Assembly: GCF_003334305.1 (NCBI RefSeq)
Contig: NZ_QOWS01000001.1
From: Escherichia coli
GTDB taxonomy: Bacteria; Pseudomonadota; Gammaproteobacteria; Enterobacterales; Enterobacteriaceae
DNA length: 64,000 nt
Reading direction: 5' to 3' (one strand)
The notes below the pieces were generated by a model. It searched no databases. It saw only the letters and a program-made list of their open reading frames with translations, and was not told the DNA's origin. The position numbers were made by a program, and so were the translations under genes. Shown here one piece after another: positions 37,969-53,514 of this stretch (positions are counted from its first letter, which is position 1; each line of letters starts with the position of its first letter).

Positions 37969-40243
37969 AGCCTCCGGGCGTTTTGTCCCTCCGTCAGCAT
38001 TTGCCGCAGGCACCGGTAAGATGTTTACCGGTGCTTATGCATGGAACGCGCCACGCGAGGCCGTCGGGCGCGAAAGACCCCTTACACGTGACGAGATGCG
38101 TCAGATGCAAGGTGTTTTATCCACGATTAACCGCCTGCCTTACTTTTTGCGCTCGCTGTTTACTTCACGCTATGACTACATCCGGCGCAATAAAAGCCCG
38201 GTGCACGGGTTTTATTTCCTCACATCCACTTTTCAGCGTCGTTTATGGCCGCGCATTGAGCGTGTGAATCAGCGCCATGAAATGAACACCGACGCGTCGT
38301 TGCTGTTTCTGGCAGAGCGTGACCACTATGCGCGCCTGCCGGGAATGAATGACAAGGAGCTGAAAAAGTTTGCCGCCCGTATCTCATCGCAGCTTTTCAT
38401 GATGTATGAGGAACTCAGCGATGCCTGGGTGGATGCACATGGCGAAAAAGAATCGCTGTTTACGGATGAGGCGCAGGCTCACCTCTATGGTCATGTTGCT
38501 GGCGCTGCACGTGCTTTCAATATTTCCCCGCTTTACTGGAAAAAATACCGTAAAGGACAGATGACCACGAGGCAGGCATATTCTGCCATTGCCCGTCTGT
38601 TTAACGATGAGTGGTGGACTCATCAGCTCAAAGGCCAGCGTATGCGCTGGCATGAGGCGTTACTGATTGCTGTCGGGGAGGTGAATAAAGACCGTTCTCC
38701 TTATGCCAGTAAACATGCCATTCGTGATGTGCGTGCACGCCGCCAGGCAAATCTGGAATTTCTTAAATCGTGTGACCTTGAAAACAGGGAAACCGGCGAG
38801 CGCATCGACCTTATCAGTAAGGTGATGGGCAGTATTTCTAATCCTGAAATTCGCCGGATGGAGCTGATGAACACCATTGCCGGTATTGAGCGTTACGCCG
38901 CCGCAGAGGGTGATGTGGGGATGTTTATCACGCTTACCGCGCCTTCAAAGTATCACCCGACACGTCAGGTCGGAAAAGGCGAAAGTAAAACCGTCCAGCT
39001 AAATCACGGCTGGAACGATGAGGCATTTAATCCAAAGGATGCGCAGCGTTATCTCTGCCATATCTGGAGCCTGATGCGCACGGCATTCAAAGATAATGAT
39101 TTACAGGTCTACGGTTTGCGTGTCGTCGAGCCACACCACGACGGAACGCCGCACTGGCATATGATGCTTTTTTGTAATCCACGCCAGCGTAACCAGATTA
39201 TCGAAATCATGCGTCGCTATGCGCTCAAAGAGGATGGCGACGAAAGAGGAGCCGCGCGAAACCGTTTTCAGGCAAAACACCTTAACCAGGGCGGTGCTGC
39301 GGGGTATATCGCGAAATACATCTCAAAAAACATCGATGGCTATGCACTGGATGGTCAGCTCGATAACGATACCGGCAGACCGCTGAAAGACACTGCTGCG
39401 GCTGTTACCGCATGGGCGTCAACGTGGCGCATCCCACAATTTAAAACGGTTGGTCTGCCGACAATGGGGGCTTACCGTGAACTACGCAAATTGCCTCGCG
39501 GCGTCAGCATTGCTGATGAGTTTGACGAGCGCGTCGAGGCTGCACGCGCCGCCGCAGACAGTGGTGATTTTGCGTTGTATATCAGCGCGCAGGGTGGGGC
39601 AAATGTCCCGCGCGATTGTCAGACTGTCAGGGTCGCCCGTAGTCCGTCGGATGAAGTTAACGAGTACGAGGAAGAAGTCGAGAGAGTGGTCGGCATTTAC
39701 GCGCCGCATCTCGGCGCGCGTCATATTCATATCACCAGAACGACGGACTGGCGCATTGTGCCGAAAGTTCCGGTCGTTGAGCCTCTGACTTTAAAAAGCG
39801 GCATCGCCGCGCCTCGGAGTCCTGTCAATAACTGTGGAAAGCTCACCGGTGGTGATACTTCGTTACCGGCTCCCACACCTTCTGAACACGCCGCAGCAGT
39901 GCTTAATCTGGTTGATGACGGTGTTATCGAATGGAATGACCCGGAGGTCGTGAGGGCGCTCAGGGGCGCATTAAAATACGGGCTGAGAACACCAAATCGT
40001 CAGCAGAGAAACGGAAGCCCGTTAAAACCACATGAAATTGCACCATCGGCCAGACTGACCCGGTCGGAAAGAATGCAAATTACCCGTATCCGCGTTGACC
40101 TTGCTCAGAACGGTATCAGGCCGCAGCGATGGGAGCTTGAGGCGCTGGCGCGTGGCGCGACCGTAAATTATGACGGGAAAAAATTCACGTATCCGGTCGC
40201 TGATGAGTGGCCGGGATTCTCAACAGTAATGGCGCGGATATAA
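37958..40243 (+). CDS. A: P2-like replication initiation endonuclease A (rolling-circle)
   Basis: About 761 aa from MAVKASGRF; HxH-type motif TPHWHMMLF and tyrosine pair GYIAKYISK. Confidence 0.9.
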   Translation: MAVKASGRFVPPSAFAAGTGKMFTGAYAWNAPREAVGRERPLTRDEMRQMQGVLSTINRLPYFLRSLFTSRYDYIRRNKSPVHGFYFLTSTFQRRLWPRIERVNQRHEMNTDASLLFLAERDHYARLPGMNDKELKKFAARISSQLFMMYEELSDAWVDAHGEKESLFTDEAQAHLYGHVAGAARAFNISPLYWKKYRKGQMTTRQAYSAIARLFNDEWWTHQLKGQRMRWHEALLIAVGEVNKDRSPYASKHAIRDVRARRQANLEFLKSCDLENRETGERIDLISKVMGSISNPEIRRMELMNTIAGIERYAAAEGDVGMFITLTAPSKYHPTRQVGKGESKTVQLNHGWNDEAFNPKDAQRYLCHIWSLMRTAFKDNDLQVYGLRVVEPHHDGTPHWHMMLFCNPRQRNQIIEIMRRYALKEDGDERGAARNRFQAKHLNQGGAAGYIAKYISKNIDGYALDGQLDNDTGRPLKDTAAAVTAWASTWRIPQFKTVGLPTMGAYRELRKLPRGVSIADEFDERVEAARAAADSGDFALYISAQGGANVPRDCQTVRVARSPSDEVNEYEEEVERVVGIYAPHLGARHIHITRTTDWRIVPKVPVVEPLTLKSGIAAPRSPVNNCGKLTGGDTSLPAPTPSEHAAAVLNLVDDGVIEWNDPEVVRALRGALKYGLRTPNRQQRNGSPLKPHEIAPSARLTRSERMQITRIRVDLAQNGIRPQRWELEALARGATVNYDGKKFTYPVADEWPGFSTVMARI

Positions 40244-40599
40244 TGACAAAGATTCACAAAGTAAAGCTGCACGCAAGATATTTCAACCTTGTGCTGGAGG
40301 AAAAAGAAACGCACAGAATTTAGGGGGATAGCCGTTATCATGTGTATGAAGCACTTGAAATGTATCTGCATCACTTGGGAGTGTGTCAACGGGGAATTTC
40401 CATCTATGTGATTTTTTGAGAGCAATGCAGTGAAGATAAAGATACTTATTATAAATCAATGTGATAGATGGTGCCTCGCAAACGTAAATGATAGTTTTGA
40501 AGCTTCAGGGCTGATGTCGTTCATAAGACTATGTTTACGCTATCATTTATGATAAAAATAATTAATTTTTATCATAAAGATTCAACAGAGGATATGTTG

Positions 40600-42105
40600 A
40601 TGAATCAACTAAAATCAATGAATATCAATAAGTTACTTTTGGATGTTGATAACCCTCGTTTCCCGACGTCAGCAGAAAATCAGCGTGATGCTATTGCCAA
40701 GATGCTTGACTTGCAGTACGACCGCATTTATCGCTTGGCTAAAGATATTGCTTCGAAAGGTTTAGATCCGTCTGAAAACATATTAGTTTATCCTAGTGAA
40801 GAGGAATCTGGCTTTTTCGTCGTTGCTGAAGGTAATCGTCGAGTTACAGCCCTTAAACTTTTACACTCTCCTAGACTTGCACCAACAGAAAAAGCACGGA
40901 AAGCTTTTGAAAAACTTAAGATTACTCAGCTTAAAGATATTAATGTTATAGATAACTGCGTTCTTTTTGACGATGATGAATATGAGCATTGGGTCAATTT
41001 AAAGCATACTGGTCAAAATGCTGGAGTTGGAAGAGTTGAATGGACTGCAACAGAAAAAGCACGACATCTGGCTAGGATGGGTAAGCAGTCATTTGGTAAT
41101 CAAATACTTACATTTATAGAGTTCAATACTGATTTATATAAAGAGATAATTGCTAAAAAAAGACTTTTAAAAATCACAAACATCACGCGTCTTTTTGGTG
41201 ATTTAAAGGTGAGGGATTATTTTAATTTAAAAAGCATTAATGGAGTTCTATACTCATATCAGCCTTATGAACGTTTTTGTGCACAATTAAAAAATATTTT
41301 AGATGTAATGATTGAAGAGGATGATAAAGGTAAGGCTTGTTTTACTGTTAATAGGATTCGTAGCCAAGATGACAGGGTTACATTTATTATTGAACAAAAA
41401 ATAAAACCTTCAGAATCTCTTTTAGATAAGCCGTGGAGTTTATTAGAGCCTAAATCTTTTCTTACAGAGAAAAAACATGATTCTATTGACAAAAATGATG
41501 CATCTGTGAGTGTAAAGAAAGCAGGTCTTTCAGAAGGTGATGCCTTAAAGAATACAGGTGTGGATAAACAGGAAGATGATTATTCTAGACATGTAGGCAC
41601 AGAAGAGAGTAAATCTAAAGTTTCGGGTACGGAACAGAATAAAAACAAGGGAAAAACTCCTCCTAAAGTAGATCGTAATGTGTTGGTGCCATCTTATGTG
41701 AAATTTAATTTTAGAGGGCATAAGAAATGCTCTAGAATATTTAATGAGCTTAAGTCGCATCTGACATTTGATAACACCCCTAATGCTATCTCAATATTGT
41801 TGAGAATATTTATAGATCTCTCTGTAAGCACTTTTGTTGAAGAAAACAAGTTACAATTTAAGGAACCACATAGAACTCCAGGGCTTCATGATAAGGTTAA
41901 AATGTGTGCTAATTTCCTTCGGGAAAATAAAAAGATGACGGGGAGTCAATGTACGGCTGTAATAACTTTCTCGAGCCAAATAACTAAACATGATGGTTCA
42001 TTGCAGCAGTATGTACATAACCCACACTTAATTCCCTCAAAAGAGGCTGTCAACACTGAGTGGGATAACTTTGAGTTGTTATTAAGCCTTATTTGGAGTG
42101 AGTGA
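40600..42105 (+). CDS. ParB/Srx-fold domain protein with disordered Lys/Ser/Glu-rich linker and uncharacterised C-terminal domain (cargo gene 1)
   Basis: ORF 40531-42105 (524 aa); likely start at 40600 (GAGGA seven nt upstream). N-terminus has DVDNPRF and VVAEGNRRVTALKLL, matching ParB box motifs; conspicuously AT-rich against the flanking phage genes. Confidence 0.7.
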   Translation: MNQLKSMNINKLLLDVDNPRFPTSAENQRDAIAKMLDLQYDRIYRLAKDIASKGLDPSENILVYPSEEESGFFVVAEGNRRVTALKLLHSPRLAPTEKARKAFEKLKITQLKDINVIDNCVLFDDDEYEHWVNLKHTGQNAGVGRVEWTATEKARHLARMGKQSFGNQILTFIEFNTDLYKEIIAKKRLLKITNITRLFGDLKVRDYFNLKSINGVLYSYQPYERFCAQLKNILDVMIEEDDKGKACFTVNRIRSQDDRVTFIIEQKIKPSESLLDKPWSLLEPKSFLTEKKHDSIDKNDASVSVKKAGLSEGDALKNTGVDKQEDDYSRHVGTEESKSKVSGTEQNKNKGKTPPKVDRNVLVPSYVKFNFRGHKKCSRIFNELKSHLTFDNTPNAISILLRIFIDLSVSTFVEENKLQFKEPHRTPGLHDKVKMCANFLRENKKMTGSQCTAVITFSSQITKHDGSLQQYVHNPHLIPSKEAVNTEWDNFELLLSLIWSE

Positions 42106-42174
42106 GATTTGTCTACATCTGGACATGGATGTCCAGAAACTGATAAACTACAAAATCAGGAATGAGAGGGATTT

Positions 42175-43059
42175 ATGAAATTTTATACTCCATTAAGATA
42201 CCCCGGCGGGAAAGGTAAGTTATCTTACTTTTTAAAAGATGTTATTGAAAAAAACTCGTTGAATGATGGAGCATATGCAGAACCTTACGCTGGTGGTGCA
42301 GGGGTGGCTTTAGAATTATTATTGGAAGAGTATGTCCGTAAAATCTATATAAATGATGCAGATTTTGCTGTTTATTCTTTTTGGTCATCTGTTGTTAGTG
42401 ATACTGATGAGCTTTGCCGACTTATTAGCCGAGCAAAGATAGATATGGATGAATGGTCTTTTCATCGCTATGTTATTTCGAATCCTTCTGAGTTTACTAA
42501 GCTTGAGGTTGGCTTTGCTGCGTTTTTCTTAAATAGAACAAATCGTTCAGGTATTCTCAAGGCGGGGGTTATAGGCGGGAAATCACAAAATGGAAAATGG
42601 AAAATGGATGTTCGCTTTAACAGGGCGGATTTAATTTCAAGAATTGAGAAGATAGCAAATTATAATCAAAGAATAGTAGTAACTAATCTGGATGCTTTGG
42701 ATTTTCTTGATGTCTTGAATTTTATGGATAATATGGGAAAGGTGGATAAAAATAAAATTCTTTTGTATTTGGATCCTCCTTACTATATTAAAGGGCAAGG
42801 GCTTTACAGGAATTTTTATGAGCATGATGATCATGTATTGGTTATGAAGAAACTCACAGAAATTAATTTCCCAAATTGGCTTGTTTCTTATGATAACGCT
42901 AAGGAAATTAAAGATATTTATAATGGATTTCCGCAAGTTGAGTATTCATTGCAATATACAGCGCATCTCAAAAAATCTGGAGAGGAAGTGATGATTTTTT
43001 CTCCTGAAATAATTATTCCTAATACCCTGAAAGGGGGCTCAATGCCAACTTGCGCCTGA
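42175..43059 (+). CDS. Dam-family (D12 class) N6-adenine DNA methyltransferase (cargo gene 2)
   Basis: 294 aa; motifs collinear with E. coli Dam: YPGGKGK (Dam WAGGK), EPYAGGAGV (Dam EPFVGAGSV), FFLNRTNRSG (Dam LYLNRYGYNG) and DPPYY (residues about 200-204); AT-rich. Confidence 0.85.
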   Translation: MKFYTPLRYPGGKGKLSYFLKDVIEKNSLNDGAYAEPYAGGAGVALELLLEEYVRKIYINDADFAVYSFWSSVVSDTDELCRLISRAKIDMDEWSFHRYVISNPSEFTKLEVGFAAFFLNRTNRSGILKAGVIGGKSQNGKWKMDVRFNRADLISRIEKIANYNQRIVVTNLDALDFLDVLNFMDNMGKVDKNKILLYLDPPYYIKGQGLYRNFYEHDDHVLVMKKLTEINFPNWLVSYDNAKEIKDIYNGFPQVEYSLQYTAHLKKSGEEVMIFSPEIIIPNTLKGGSMPTCA

Positions 43060-43206
43060 TTTTACTTATTTTTTGTCAGTAAGTAATTAGTTTGGTGCAT
43101 TTATTTGCATTCATTTTTAAATGCCAGTTCTGGTATCTAACATCAGTGCTGGCGCATTCTAACCATTACTGCTGCACTGCATTTAAAGCCCTGCATGAAG
43201 CGGGCG

Positions 43207-43225
43207 GGCGAGGCGGGGAAAGCAC
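43207..43225. other. Phage cos site (19-nt cohesive-end sequence)
   Basis: GGCGAGGCGGGGAAAGCAC matches my recollection of the P2/186 cohesive end; lies between the cargo and portal gene Q. Confidence 0.75.
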
Positions 43226-43393
43226 TGCGCGCTGACGGTGGTGCTGATTGTATTTTTTCAGCGTCTCAGCGCGTCGTGACGGCGCTTAGTCTGCCCGTTG
43301 AGGCGTTGTGTGTCTGCGGGGTGTTTTGTGCGGTGGTGAGCGTGTGAGGGCGTGATGACTGGGTGTAAAAAAGCCGCCCGCAGGCGGCGATGT

Positions 43394-44428
43394 TCAGCCG
43401 TTGTCAGTGTCCAGTGAGTAGTTTTTAAAGCGGATGACCTCCTGACCGAGCCAGCCGTTTATCTCGCGGATCCTGTCCTGTAACGGGATAAGCTCATTGC
43501 GGACAAAGACCTTTGCCACTTTCTCAATATCACCCAGCGACCCGACGTTCTCCGGCTTGCCCCCCATCAACTGAAAGGGGATGCGGTGCGCGTCCAGCAG
43601 GTCAGTGGCGCTGGCTTTTTTGATATTAAAAAAATCGTCCTTCGTCGCTACTTCACTGAGGGGGATAATTTTAATGCCGTCAGCTTTCCCCTGTGGCGCA
43701 TAGAGAAACAGATTTTTAAAGTTGTTGCGGCCTTTCGACTTAACCATGTTTTCGCGAAGCATTTCGATATCGTTGCGATCCTGCACGGCATCGGTGACGT
43801 ACATGATGTATCCGGCATGGGCGCCATTTTCGTAATACTTGCGGCGGAACAGCGTGGCCGACTCATTCAGCCAGGCAGAGTTAAGGGCGCTGAGATATTC
43901 CGGCAGGCCGTACAGCTCCTGATTAATATCCGGCTCCAGCAGGTGAAACACGGAGCCGGGCGCGAAAGGTGTCGGCTCATGGAAGGACGGCACCCACCAG
44001 TAAACATCCTCTTCCACGCCACGGCGGGTATATTTTGCCGGTGAGGTTTCCAGTCTGATGACCTTACCGGTGGTGCTGTAACGCTTTTCCAGAAACGCAT
44101 TACCGAACACCAGAAAATCCAGCACAAAGCGGCTGAAATCCTGCTGGGAAAGCCACGGATGCGGAATAAACGTTGAAGCCAGAATATTGCGTTTAACGTA
44201 AATCGGCGAGCTGTGATGCACGGCAGCACGCAGGCTTTTTGCCAGACCGGTAAAGCTGACCGGCGGCTCATACCATCTGCCGTTACTGATGCACTCGACG
44301 TAATCCAGAATGTCACGGCGGTCGAGTACCGGCACCGGCTCGCCAAAGGTGAATGCCTCCATTTTCGGGGCGCTGGCGGTCATTGTTTTTGCCGCAGGTT
44401 GCGGTGTTTTCCCTTTTTTCTTGCTCAT
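43394..44428 (-). CDS. Q: Portal protein
   Basis: 344 aa, P2 gpQ length and position. Confidence 0.9.
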   Translation of the reverse strand: MSKKKGKTPQPAAKTMTASAPKMEAFTFGEPVPVLDRRDILDYVECISNGRWYEPPVSFTGLAKSLRAAVHHSSPIYVKRNILASTFIPHPWLSQQDFSRFVLDFLVFGNAFLEKRYSTTGKVIRLETSPAKYTRRGVEEDVYWWVPSFHEPTPFAPGSVFHLLEPDINQELYGLPEYLSALNSAWLNESATLFRRKYYENGAHAGYIMYVTDAVQDRNDIEMLRENMVKSKGRNNFKNLFLYAPQGKADGIKIIPLSEVATKDDFFNIKKASATDLLDAHRIPFQLMGGKPENVGSLGDIEKVAKVFVRNELIPLQDRIREINGWLGQEVIRFKNYSLDTDNG

Positions 44429-52574: not shown

Positions 52575-52645
52575 TTTTATCCAGGCAGAGGCTGATGCGC
52601 AATTAAACATTGAGCGGCCATGCTGGTCGCTCAATGTTTAGAGGT

Positions 52646-53431
52646 TTATGAGTGATTTTTATTTGATGCTTTGTATTCTAAAACCTTCTTATTGGCGTAA
52701 AAGAATTTTGTATATGACAGGAATATAACCAGACCTGAAGTGAAATAGACGAGGGATAGTATTAATAATGCTTTTTTGTGACTGTTATTATCTTTAATCT
52801 CCTGGCTTAACCATTCGGAGTCCTCCTCGTTTAGCTGTAAGAGCTTATTGCAGGCGATCTCAGGAAGTGTGTCTTTTATAAATACGTTTTGCAGTTTCTT
52901 GCAATCGGCAAGGCTATAAGTTTTATTAAATTCAACTGCTTTATTTTTGAAGGATAAAAGAACTTTGTCACTATAAACATAGTACATCATGTTTTTATAT
53001 GGTATGCCTATGGCATCCCTTACTATAACGGATTGTTTGTTGTGTATGTAACATGCGAGGAGAATGTAAAAAATACTGGTCAGAATTACAATTATTGTTT
53101 TAATTATGTGTGGTGGTTTTGTTATGTCACCCCAGATGCGAGTAAGGAAAAAATACGATGTTTTTAGTTTTCCATCAATCAGTCCCTGCTGTATCATTCT
53201 CACATTTTCAATGCCTGATACATTGATTCCGTTAATTATTTTAAATAGTTGAATGTCGCGCCACTCGCGGTCAAGTCTTTTTAATTTTTTGTCTGAATAT
53301 CCAAAATTGAAATAATGTGCAATAAGCCTCATAAGGTTACTTTTACCAAAGCTAAAAAATGCTAATACTGCAAAGCTACAAAGGAAAAAAACGATTAGCC
53401 CCCACACATTAGTCACATTATAGCTGACCAT
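52646..53431 (-). CDS. AT-rich predicted membrane protein of unknown function, antisense to the late operons (cargo)
   Basis: 261-aa ORF between S and V; about three hydrophobic helices (IVFFLCSFAVLAFFSF, IIKTIIVILTSIFYILLACYI, ALLILSLVYFTSGLVIFLSY); Lys/Asn/Ile-rich. Confidence 0.65.
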   Translation of the reverse strand: MVSYNVTNVWGLIVFFLCSFAVLAFFSFGKSNLMRLIAHYFNFGYSDKKLKRLDREWRDIQLFKIINGINVSGIENVRMIQQGLIDGKLKTSYFFLTRIWGDITKPPHIIKTIIVILTSIFYILLACYIHNKQSVIVRDAIGIPYKNMMYYVYSDKVLLSFKNKAVEFNKTYSLADCKKLQNVFIKDTLPEIACNKLLQLNEEDSEWLSQEIKDNNSHKKALLILSLVYFTSGLVIFLSYTKFFYANKKVLEYKASNKNHS

Positions 53432-53514
53432 TACGCTCTCCTTGAATGTTGTCTGGTAGTTCTACAAATGAATCCAGATAGCATAACTTTTATATATTGT
53501 GCAATCTCACATGC

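Follow-up and report, generated by a model that had tools for sequence, protein, structure and literature searches.

The two genes located between gene A and cos of a P2-like prophage in the window (the whole 64,000-nucleotide stretch of Escherichia coli contig NZ_QOWS01000001.1 analyzed here) are almost certainly PD-λ-5, a two-gene anti-phage system with its type copy in E. coli ECOR7 (strain A7). Both are encoded on the plus strand, at 40600-42105 (gene 1, PD-λ-5A) and 42175-43059 (gene 2, PD-λ-5B), separated by a gap of 69 bp. Gene 1 matched the PADLOC PD-Lambda-5_A model PDLC03998 with an E value of 5.1e-168 (residues 1-500 against positions 1-465 of 466 in the model), and the 25 PADLOC families among its matches listed were all PD-Lambda-5_A models. 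Gene 2 matched the PD-Lambda-5_B model PDLC04018 over its full length (E 2.6e-121), and its product is RCQ13838.1, residue for residue. The genes are adjacent and co-oriented with A upstream of B, which is the PD-λ-5 arrangement. The entry for this system in Table S2 of Vassallo et al. (2022, Nat Microbiol 7:1568, PMC9519451) gives RCQ13837.1 and RCQ13838.1 from ECOR7, contig QOWS01000001, with the coding sequences at 264599-267059, i.e., 2461 bp versus 2460 bp for 40600-43059 in the window. The HHpred ranges published for the two proteins (ParBc, 6-89 in 5A; MethyltransfD12, 9-262 in 5B) are compatible with genes 1 and 2, and a P2-like prophage setting is given for seven systems of that study (PMC9519451). 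The DNA of strain A7, an E. coli isolate from an orangutan, is 100.0% identical at the locus, and across 14,963 bp a single 1-bp indel is its sole difference from the window. Proteins, gene order, spacing and strain (ECOR7/A7) are common to our locus and the system that PADLOC and DefenseFinder call “PD-Lambda-5,” and we found no difference between the two.

A real defense locus is present, though not a new one: PD-λ-5 has been named, experimentally validated and available in PADLOC since 2022-2023, and the window carries the tested copy itself. The original prediction had put the pair forward as a candidate undescribed module, different from any named system, and this was wrong. It had proposed PADLOC as a check, counting membership of a named system as evidence against its own idea, and PD-Lambda-5_A and _B are what PADLOC returned. 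There is now next to no room for an unnamed system. The generic RefSeq label of gene 1, and its lack of a name in Pfam and NCBIfam, would fit such a view, but the PADLOC models for both components and the exact published accession refute it. Another check, a phage-panel challenge of K-12 carrying the locus cloned under its own promoter, has in essence been published for the same locus (Vassallo et al., PMC9519451). The broader reading, of an anti-phage module that links methylation to an effector protein, was borne out, with the mechanism itself at the stage of a proposal. The locus has no value as a discovery, the system being already named and validated. A literature search for work on the mechanism of PD-λ-5 after 2022 turned up nothing beyond census papers and a single repeat of the “RM/Abi” label, and neither protein is known to have a biochemical activity.

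The ORF list and the sequence of the right boundary place the pair exactly where it had been predicted. The left edge of the hotspot is the stop codon, at 40243, of gene A (P2-type replication endonuclease), and the right one is a 19-mer, GGCGAGGCGGGGAAAGCAC, read at 43207-43225 (strand not assigned), which we take to be the P2 cos cohesive end. Beyond it, on the minus strand, lies an ORF annotated as the portal gene (43394-44428). The AT-richness claimed relative to the flanks is also there, with a GC content of 0.31-0.38 over 40200-43200 versus 0.51-0.59 on both sides. The two genes thus form a cargo that the P2 gene A-to-cos hotspot acquired separately. Directly 3' of the gene A stop, a remnant of a DUF3850-domain gene (40243-40324, plus strand), a pseudogene that PGAP annotates as “frameshifted; incomplete” in strains A7 and KH_005, is the scar of an earlier cargo and is not part of the system. 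The feature is not due to chance: of 5426 complete E. coli genomes, 22 have the same 2963-bp stretch with an identity of ≥99%. A megablast search of 50,697 phage records gave no match to the locus, and all copies seen were in prophages of bacterial genomes. In an Rfam scan, no part of 40000-43500 came close to a gathering score.

The region upstream of gene 1 (40328-40599, plus strand) contains the native promoter and is part of the fragment that Vassallo et al. cloned (264327-267487 for a CDS at 264599-267059, i.e., 272 bp 5' of the CDS; PMC9519451). It includes a candidate sigma-70-like site at 40534-40562, from a promoter scan that was not enriched over shuffles, and a perfect 14-nt inverted repeat at 40546-40578. 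We rejected this repeat as a conserved operator; it is not kept in the Enterobacter, Salmonella and Serratia loci, and none of six distant loci had a comparable inverted repeat. Translation of gene 1 begins at ATG 40600. This is the start used by PGAP (501 aa, WP_001072651.1), it is preceded by a GAGGA Shine-Dalgarno sequence 7 nt 5' of the ATG (about 40588-40592), and the aligned homologues all start at the matching position; the ATG at 40531 is unsupported.

PD-λ-5A comprises a ParB/Srx fold (residues 1 to about 125), a conserved middle domain (about 126-286), a disordered, variable, low-complexity linker (287-354) and an alpha-helical HEPN fold (355-501). The ParB/Srx domain had been predicted from LLLDVDNPRF and VVAEGNRRVTALKLL, both present in the translation, and the assignment held: the region has the fold and the Box-II GxxR arginine motif of the ParB/Srx (ParB-CTPase) superfamily, resembles the N-terminal regions of KorB, ParB and Noc, and has E77-G78-N79-R80-R81 invariant in the alignment of homologues. 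It should be noted that this fold alone is no proof of a nuclease, as many of its members are NTP switches (PMC12704722). The C-terminal HEPN domain was missed in the earlier reading. Invariant residues in it are Y471, H473 and N474, together with R359, E383 and R402. The catalytic Rx4-6H motif is absent. Although H473 is invariant within Y-V-H-N, the upstream arginine is not conserved, and the positions 4 to 6 residues before H473 hold G/K/R/D, S/T/A and L/I/F/G in the homologues, so that RNase activity is not assured. The invariant R402 and R359 could be replacements for the lost arginine. HHpred support for HEPN in Vassallo et al. was just 8 to 36% (PMC9519451); the confident HEPN-fold assignment for 355-501, with the domain boundaries, is an addition to the published account, and so is the N-terminal ParB/Srx fold with its invariant EGNRR. 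Pfam gave no significant family for gene 1 alone or for all 34 aligned homologues, NCBIfam nothing but a 14-bit RepB match, and sequence searches of the PDB with gene 1, the full profile and the C-domain profile no meaningful match; no restriction-endonuclease family matched gene 1 either. RefSeq labels the protein “hypothetical protein” or “ParB N-terminal domain-containing protein.”

PD-λ-5B (294 aa) is a D12-class (alpha-group) N6-adenine DNA methyltransferase, as anticipated, with matches to Pfam PF02086 (E 5.7e-16) and to PDB chain 7m6b_B, an adenine methyltransferase (E 2e-12). The motifs quoted for it (RYPGGKGK, EPYAGGAGV, FFLNRTNRSG and LDPPYY) are, like those of gene 1, all in the translation, and include the AdoMet-binding motif I (PYAGGAGV) and the catalytic (D/N)PPY motif IV (DPPY). 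With the Dam (GATC) subfamily model TIGR00571 it reached 46.8 bits, below the cut-off of 114.85. Matches were also obtained with phrog_56 and with the PADLOC orphan-methyltransferase and type II methyltransferase models (MTase_II, PDLC03358, E 5e-103).

The pairing of the two genes recurs well away from E. coli. A D12 methyltransferase lies immediately 3' of A, on the same strand, in 9/9 relatives examined (down to about 30% identity), and this too is added to the published account. The genomic contexts of the nine are unrelated to one another, and include P2 hotspots, one locus in the vicinity of Tn7-like genes, and one in a neighborhood with genes for ArdA, Toprim and MobC, as are typically found on conjugative elements; some have no phage genes nearby. 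The junction between A and the methyltransferase is short or overlapping in some loci. For those who work on PD-λ-5, the GNRR of the ParB/Srx domain, the middle domain, the disordered linker, the arginine-less HEPN and the strict D12 pairing across distant bacteria offer a guide to mutagenesis and biochemistry.

On a host with the locus cloned in low copy with its native promoter, 9 of 10 phages plated less efficiently or formed smaller plaques, with the strongest protection against T-even phages; the clone required an mrr-deleted host, and the authors labeled the system a compacted “RM+Abi” (Vassallo et al., PMC9519451). In view of what is known of Mrr specificity, dependence on an mrr-deleted host suggests that the m6A methyltransferase is active at a non-Dam site, and argues against GATC specificity too. 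To the mechanism as a whole, a methylation-gated self/non-self system in which 5B marks and 5A is the effector, we give an even chance. PD-λ-5B would put N6-methyladenine on the resident DNA at a non-GATC site. The ParB/Srx domain of PD-λ-5A, with its intact Box-II-like GNRR arginine pair, would bind nucleotide and/or DNA, and may detect or nick incoming DNA that lacks the mark. A second, growth-arresting activity, probably of the RNase type, would come from the HEPN domain at the end of the flexible linker, and this activity may represent the “Abi” arm of “RM+Abi.” DNA of T-even phages is resistant to most classical restriction enzymes, and the strong protection against these phages is thus a misfit with a simple restriction model. 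A possible but rather doubtful version of the mechanism is that PD-λ-5A is not a restriction nuclease but a nucleotide-gated ParB-fold switch, kin of the ParB, KorB and Noc CTP clamps, which would load on DNA without the m6A of PD-λ-5B and then switch on the arginine-less HEPN via the linker. If true, this would account for the activity against T-even phages and would amount to a mechanistically new class of methylation-gated immunity, in which a ParB-CTPase-type sensor leads to an RNase-type output.

Obligate pairing over such different mobile contexts is also what would be expected of a toxin-antitoxin-like addiction module. A lapse in methylation would then turn PD-λ-5A against the DNA or RNA of its own cell, and the main role would be to stabilize the prophage or other element through post-segregational killing of the kind seen with type II R-M, with defense as a by-product. 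A HEPN effector is typical of toxins, and tight co-expression would agree with the gene order (effector, then methyltransferase) and with junctions that, in some loci, are short or overlap. However, the low-copy clone gave broad phage protection (PMC9519451), and we consider addiction as the main role unlikely, although the two roles are not mutually exclusive. The matches of gene 2 to phrog_56 and to the orphan and type II methyltransferase models, and the frequency of orphan Dam-like methyltransferases in phages, would agree with an epigenetic or anti-restriction module at the service of the phage, the methyltransferase shielding P2 DNA from host restriction and gene 1 being an unrelated accessory or regulator. 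This seems very improbable, as A followed by a methyltransferase is kept in all nine relatives, loci without phage genes included, gene 1 has conserved catalytic-looking residues, and a non-lysogen carrying the clone is protected from unrelated phages (PMC9519451). Likewise, the similarity to KorB, ParB and Noc and the weak RepB match could evoke an ordinary partition ParB, from a plasmid or a prophage, whose helix-turn-helix binds a centromere. We rejected this explanation, which has a negligible probability: TIGR03454 scored 14.2 bits versus a cut-off of 201.5, there is no adjacent parA, and the C terminus is a HEPN.

The methylation-gated system favored above shares its methyltransferase class with type II R-M systems that have Dam-like (D12) enzymes (DpnII, EcoRV), and has in common with them broad protection and methylation as a self-mark (proposed for PD-λ-5). 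Unlike them, it has no PD-(D/E)xK, HNH or GIY-YIG endonuclease, the partner being a ParB/Srx-HEPN protein, and it protects against T-even phages. A classical type II R-M system was discarded, for the methyltransferase motifs are present but gene 1 has no recognized restriction-enzyme fold. In GmrSD, SspE and BrxU, a DUF262 ParB/Srx NTPase is fused to an HNH/DUF1524 nuclease, whereas the effector of PD-λ-5A is a HEPN; the targets of those systems are modified DNA, or else they sense phosphorothioate of the host, and, unlike PD-λ-5, they have no dedicated adenine methyltransferase partner. P2 old, tin and the other gene A-to-cos cargo share the insertion site, AT-richness and defensive role, but their proteins are unrelated (Rousset et al. 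2022, PMC9122126), and the text of that paper does not mention ParB or methyltransferase cargo.

Operons with a ParB nuclease, a DNA methylase and a HEPN of the MAE_28990 family were described by Anantharaman et al. 2013 (PMC3710099), and “compacted RM+Abi” probably alludes to this type. As in PD-λ-5, a ParB-fold protein, an adenine methylase and a HEPN are found in one operon, but there the HEPN is a separate gene that keeps Rx4-6H, while in PD-λ-5A it is fused via the disordered linker and lacks the arginine. Pfam HEPN_MAE_28990 did not match gene 1 or the aligned homologues. The PD-λ-5A family is large: clusters (50% identity) that match at E≤1e-10 number at least 1,200, and its architecture is shared by nearly all of the 150 best matches out of 1956. 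Stand-alone versions of the C-terminal HEPN, which would favor a fusion from a three-gene ancestor, were sought among these 150; the six short matches that we read (166-270 aa) start inside the conserved middle or linker region and seem to be proteins of this same architecture that have lost their N-terminal part.

The two co-oriented ORFs of the + strand lie between the end of gene A, annotated as a P2-type replication endonuclease (775-aa ORF, ending at 40243), and the 19-mer GGCGAGGCGGGGAAAGCAC read at 43207-43225, which we take to be the P2 cos sequence. The portal gene follows downstream of the pair on the opposite strand (43394-44428). This layout, with 69 bp between gene 1 (501 aa; longest ORF 40531-42105) and gene 2 (42175-43059), bears out the original prediction, as do the AT-richness of the island (GC content of 0.31-0.38 across 40200-43200 versus 0.51-0.59 in both flanks) and the quoted motifs, all of which were found. 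The start of gene 1 had been placed at either 40531 or 40600, and only the latter stood: it has GAGGA 7 nt upstream of the ATG, it is the start chosen by PGAP and every homologue aligns from this methionine. Judged by sequence, ATG 40600 is thus the real start. Directly after the gene A stop (40243-40324) lies what is left of a DUF3850 (PUA/ASCH-like) gene, a frameshifted partial pseudogene according to PGAP in two strains and likely the scar of former hotspot cargo. At 40546-40578, 22 bp upstream of the gene 1 start and overlapping a promoter-like site, TTTATGATAAAAAT and ATTTTTATCATAAA form a perfect 14-nt inverted repeat around a 5-nt spacer. The repeat lacks conservation in the Enterobacter, Salmonella and Serratia relatives, and a role as a general operator is therefore improbable.

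The locus is already known. In PADLOC, gene 1 matched PD-Lambda-5_A (PDLC03998; E value, 5.1e-168; residues 1-500 against positions 1-465 of 466 in the model), all 25 families listed for it being PD-Lambda-5_A models, and gene 2 matched PD-Lambda-5_B over its full length (PDLC04018; 2.6e-121). An exact-sequence look-up identified the gene 2 product as RCQ13838.1. Table S2 of Vassallo et al. 2022 gives the source of the two-gene anti-phage system PD-λ-5 as ECOR7, contig QOWS01000001, RCQ13837.1 plus RCQ13838.1, with the CDS at 264599-267059 and the cloned fragment at 264327-267487 (PMC9519451). The CDS span is 2461 bp in that table versus 2460 bp for 40600-43059 in the window, and 40244-43206 shares 100.0% identity with E. 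coli A7 (orangutan faeces, USA). The accession, the span and this identity indicate that the window carries the type copy of PD-λ-5, beyond a mere homologue. The guess at function, a defence module linked to methylation and placed in the P2 hotspot, was therefore right, with phage protection already published. The claim of an undescribed system, to be given up if both genes belonged to a named and characterised one, falls with the full-length matches in PADLOC (a search that had been proposed) and with RCQ13838.1, and retains virtually no probability. In a 14,963-bp comparison spanning the locus, the window departs from A7 (NZ_CP028767.1) only by a 1-bp indel at about 43565. PGAP calls the affected portal gene “frameshifted” in A7, whereas the window has it intact, as a 344-aa ORF; the indel most likely reflects a mistake of sequencing or assembly in one of the two records.

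PD-λ-5 emerged from a functional selection in which genomic fragments of E. coli were challenged with λvir. On a low-copy plasmid and under its native promoter, in MG1655 with the mrr region deleted (a required background), it protects against many phages, T-even phages being restricted best (PMC9519451). Table S1 labels it “ParB/HEPN, methyltransferase” and the authors read it as “RM+Abi”; their HHpred gave ParBc 96.4% (residues 6-89) and MethyltransfD12 99.9%, whereas the HEPN part reached only 35.6% (DUF4145) and 8% (HEPN_RiboL-PSP) (PMC9519451). In the literature we found no later mechanistic work, the mentions being censuses or restatements of RM/Abi. What remains of interest is only the mechanism, and what is new here is the placement of the domains within PD-λ-5A (gene 1) under the “RM+Abi” reading.

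We aligned 34 homologues with identities down to ca. 30%; this alignment and an AlphaFold2 model (mean pLDDT, 78.8) divide PD-λ-5A into a folded part (1-286), a disordered linker (287-354) of low complexity and varying length, and a second folded part (355-501). In one distant homologue of 560 aa (P0200, locus L006 4001-5683), the linker has grown into tandem TTAVTPPV/TTEVVPPA-type repeats, showing that neither its length nor its composition is fixed. Foldseek, also proposed originally, matched the N terminus to KorB, ParB and Noc with a probability of ca. 1, E values of only 3e-3 to 4e-2 and alignments covering only ca. 110 to 140 residues. Within it, the invariant E77-G78-N79-R80-R81 sits where ParB has its phosphate-binding motif, Box II GxxR(R); the arginine of this motif is required for NTP binding across the ParB fold (PMC12704722). 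The middle domain (ca. 126-286) is conserved, with invariant W131, H136, G138, N140, G142, R197, D201 and R259. The C-terminal 150 residues modelled alone reached a pLDDT of 92.8, which makes the predicted HEPN assignment now solid. Y471-V-H473-N474 is invariant there, as are R359, E383 and R402 elsewhere in the domain, and the conserved arginine sought 4 to 6 residues upstream is absent among the 34 homologues; the site is non-canonical.

Mrr has a known specificity for certain m6A-modified DNA. Combined with the need for an mrr-deleted host, this suggests that PD-λ-5B (gene 2) is an active methyltransferase whose marks are not simply those of Dam at GATC, and its score against TIGR00571 (46.8, below the cut-off of 114.85) also points away from simple Dam marking. 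We see an even chance for a joint mechanism in which PD-λ-5B would write an m6A self-mark and PD-λ-5A would be the effector, its ParB/Srx domain sensing or nicking unmarked DNA, perhaps with nucleotide dependence, and its tethered HEPN providing a second, growth-arresting and probably RNA-directed activity. It keeps to the authors’ “RM+Abi” reading and adds where the domains lie, with a parallel in the three-gene operons of Anantharaman et al. 2013, in which a ParB nuclease is combined with a DNA methylase and a HEPN of the MAE_28990 family. Several points speak against plain restriction: PD-λ-5 lacks a recognised restriction-enzyme fold, the enzymology of the ParB fold is ambiguous, the HEPN arginine is missing and the best-restricted phages are the T-even ones. 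An addiction module, which would be compatible with a role in defence, seems unlikely. That gene 1 is a partition ParB is scarcely credible, and a phage-serving orphan methylase beside an unrelated neighbour is highly improbable; a PF02086 methyltransferase was found directly downstream, on the same strand, in all nine relatives whose neighbourhood was examined.

PD-λ-5A and its methyltransferase are an obligate, mobile two-gene module. Relatives were located in P2-type hotspots of Enterobacter and Serratia, in a Salmonella island, adjoining Tn7-like genes in a Methylomonas chromosome and in several metagenomic contigs, one of them with genes for ArdA, Toprim and MobC, as is typical of conjugative elements. 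A profile of the C-terminal domain recovered 1956 cluster representatives at E<=1e-3 (1202 at E<=1e-10), and nearly all of the best 150 were 440 to 560 aa long with the domain at the C terminus. Six shorter matches among those listed (166 to 270 aa) begin within the conserved middle/linker region, as expected of N-truncated fragments. Within E. coli the locus is rare: 22 of 5426 complete genomes have it in full with at least 99% identity, and 12 more have matches of 90 to 95%. In six of the 15 complete genomes listed (e.g., NZ_CM130729.1 and NZ_CP062824.1) its start falls on position 2286 or 2287 of the record, which means that the chromosome record begins about one gene A length upstream (2286 nt in A7); rotation may have set the origin of these assemblies at the prophage replication gene and not at dnaA, which would be an assembly-rotation artefact.

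The same prophage has a second AT-rich island among its late genes (52600-53450; GC content of 0.33-0.35 versus 0.55-0.59 in the flanks), at what we take to be the position where P2 carries orf30. Its lone ORF (52646-53431, - strand, 261 aa), with no match in PADLOC or NCBIfam, matches phrog_2407 (unknown function; E value, 4e-148) and has hydrophobic stretches resembling transmembrane segments.
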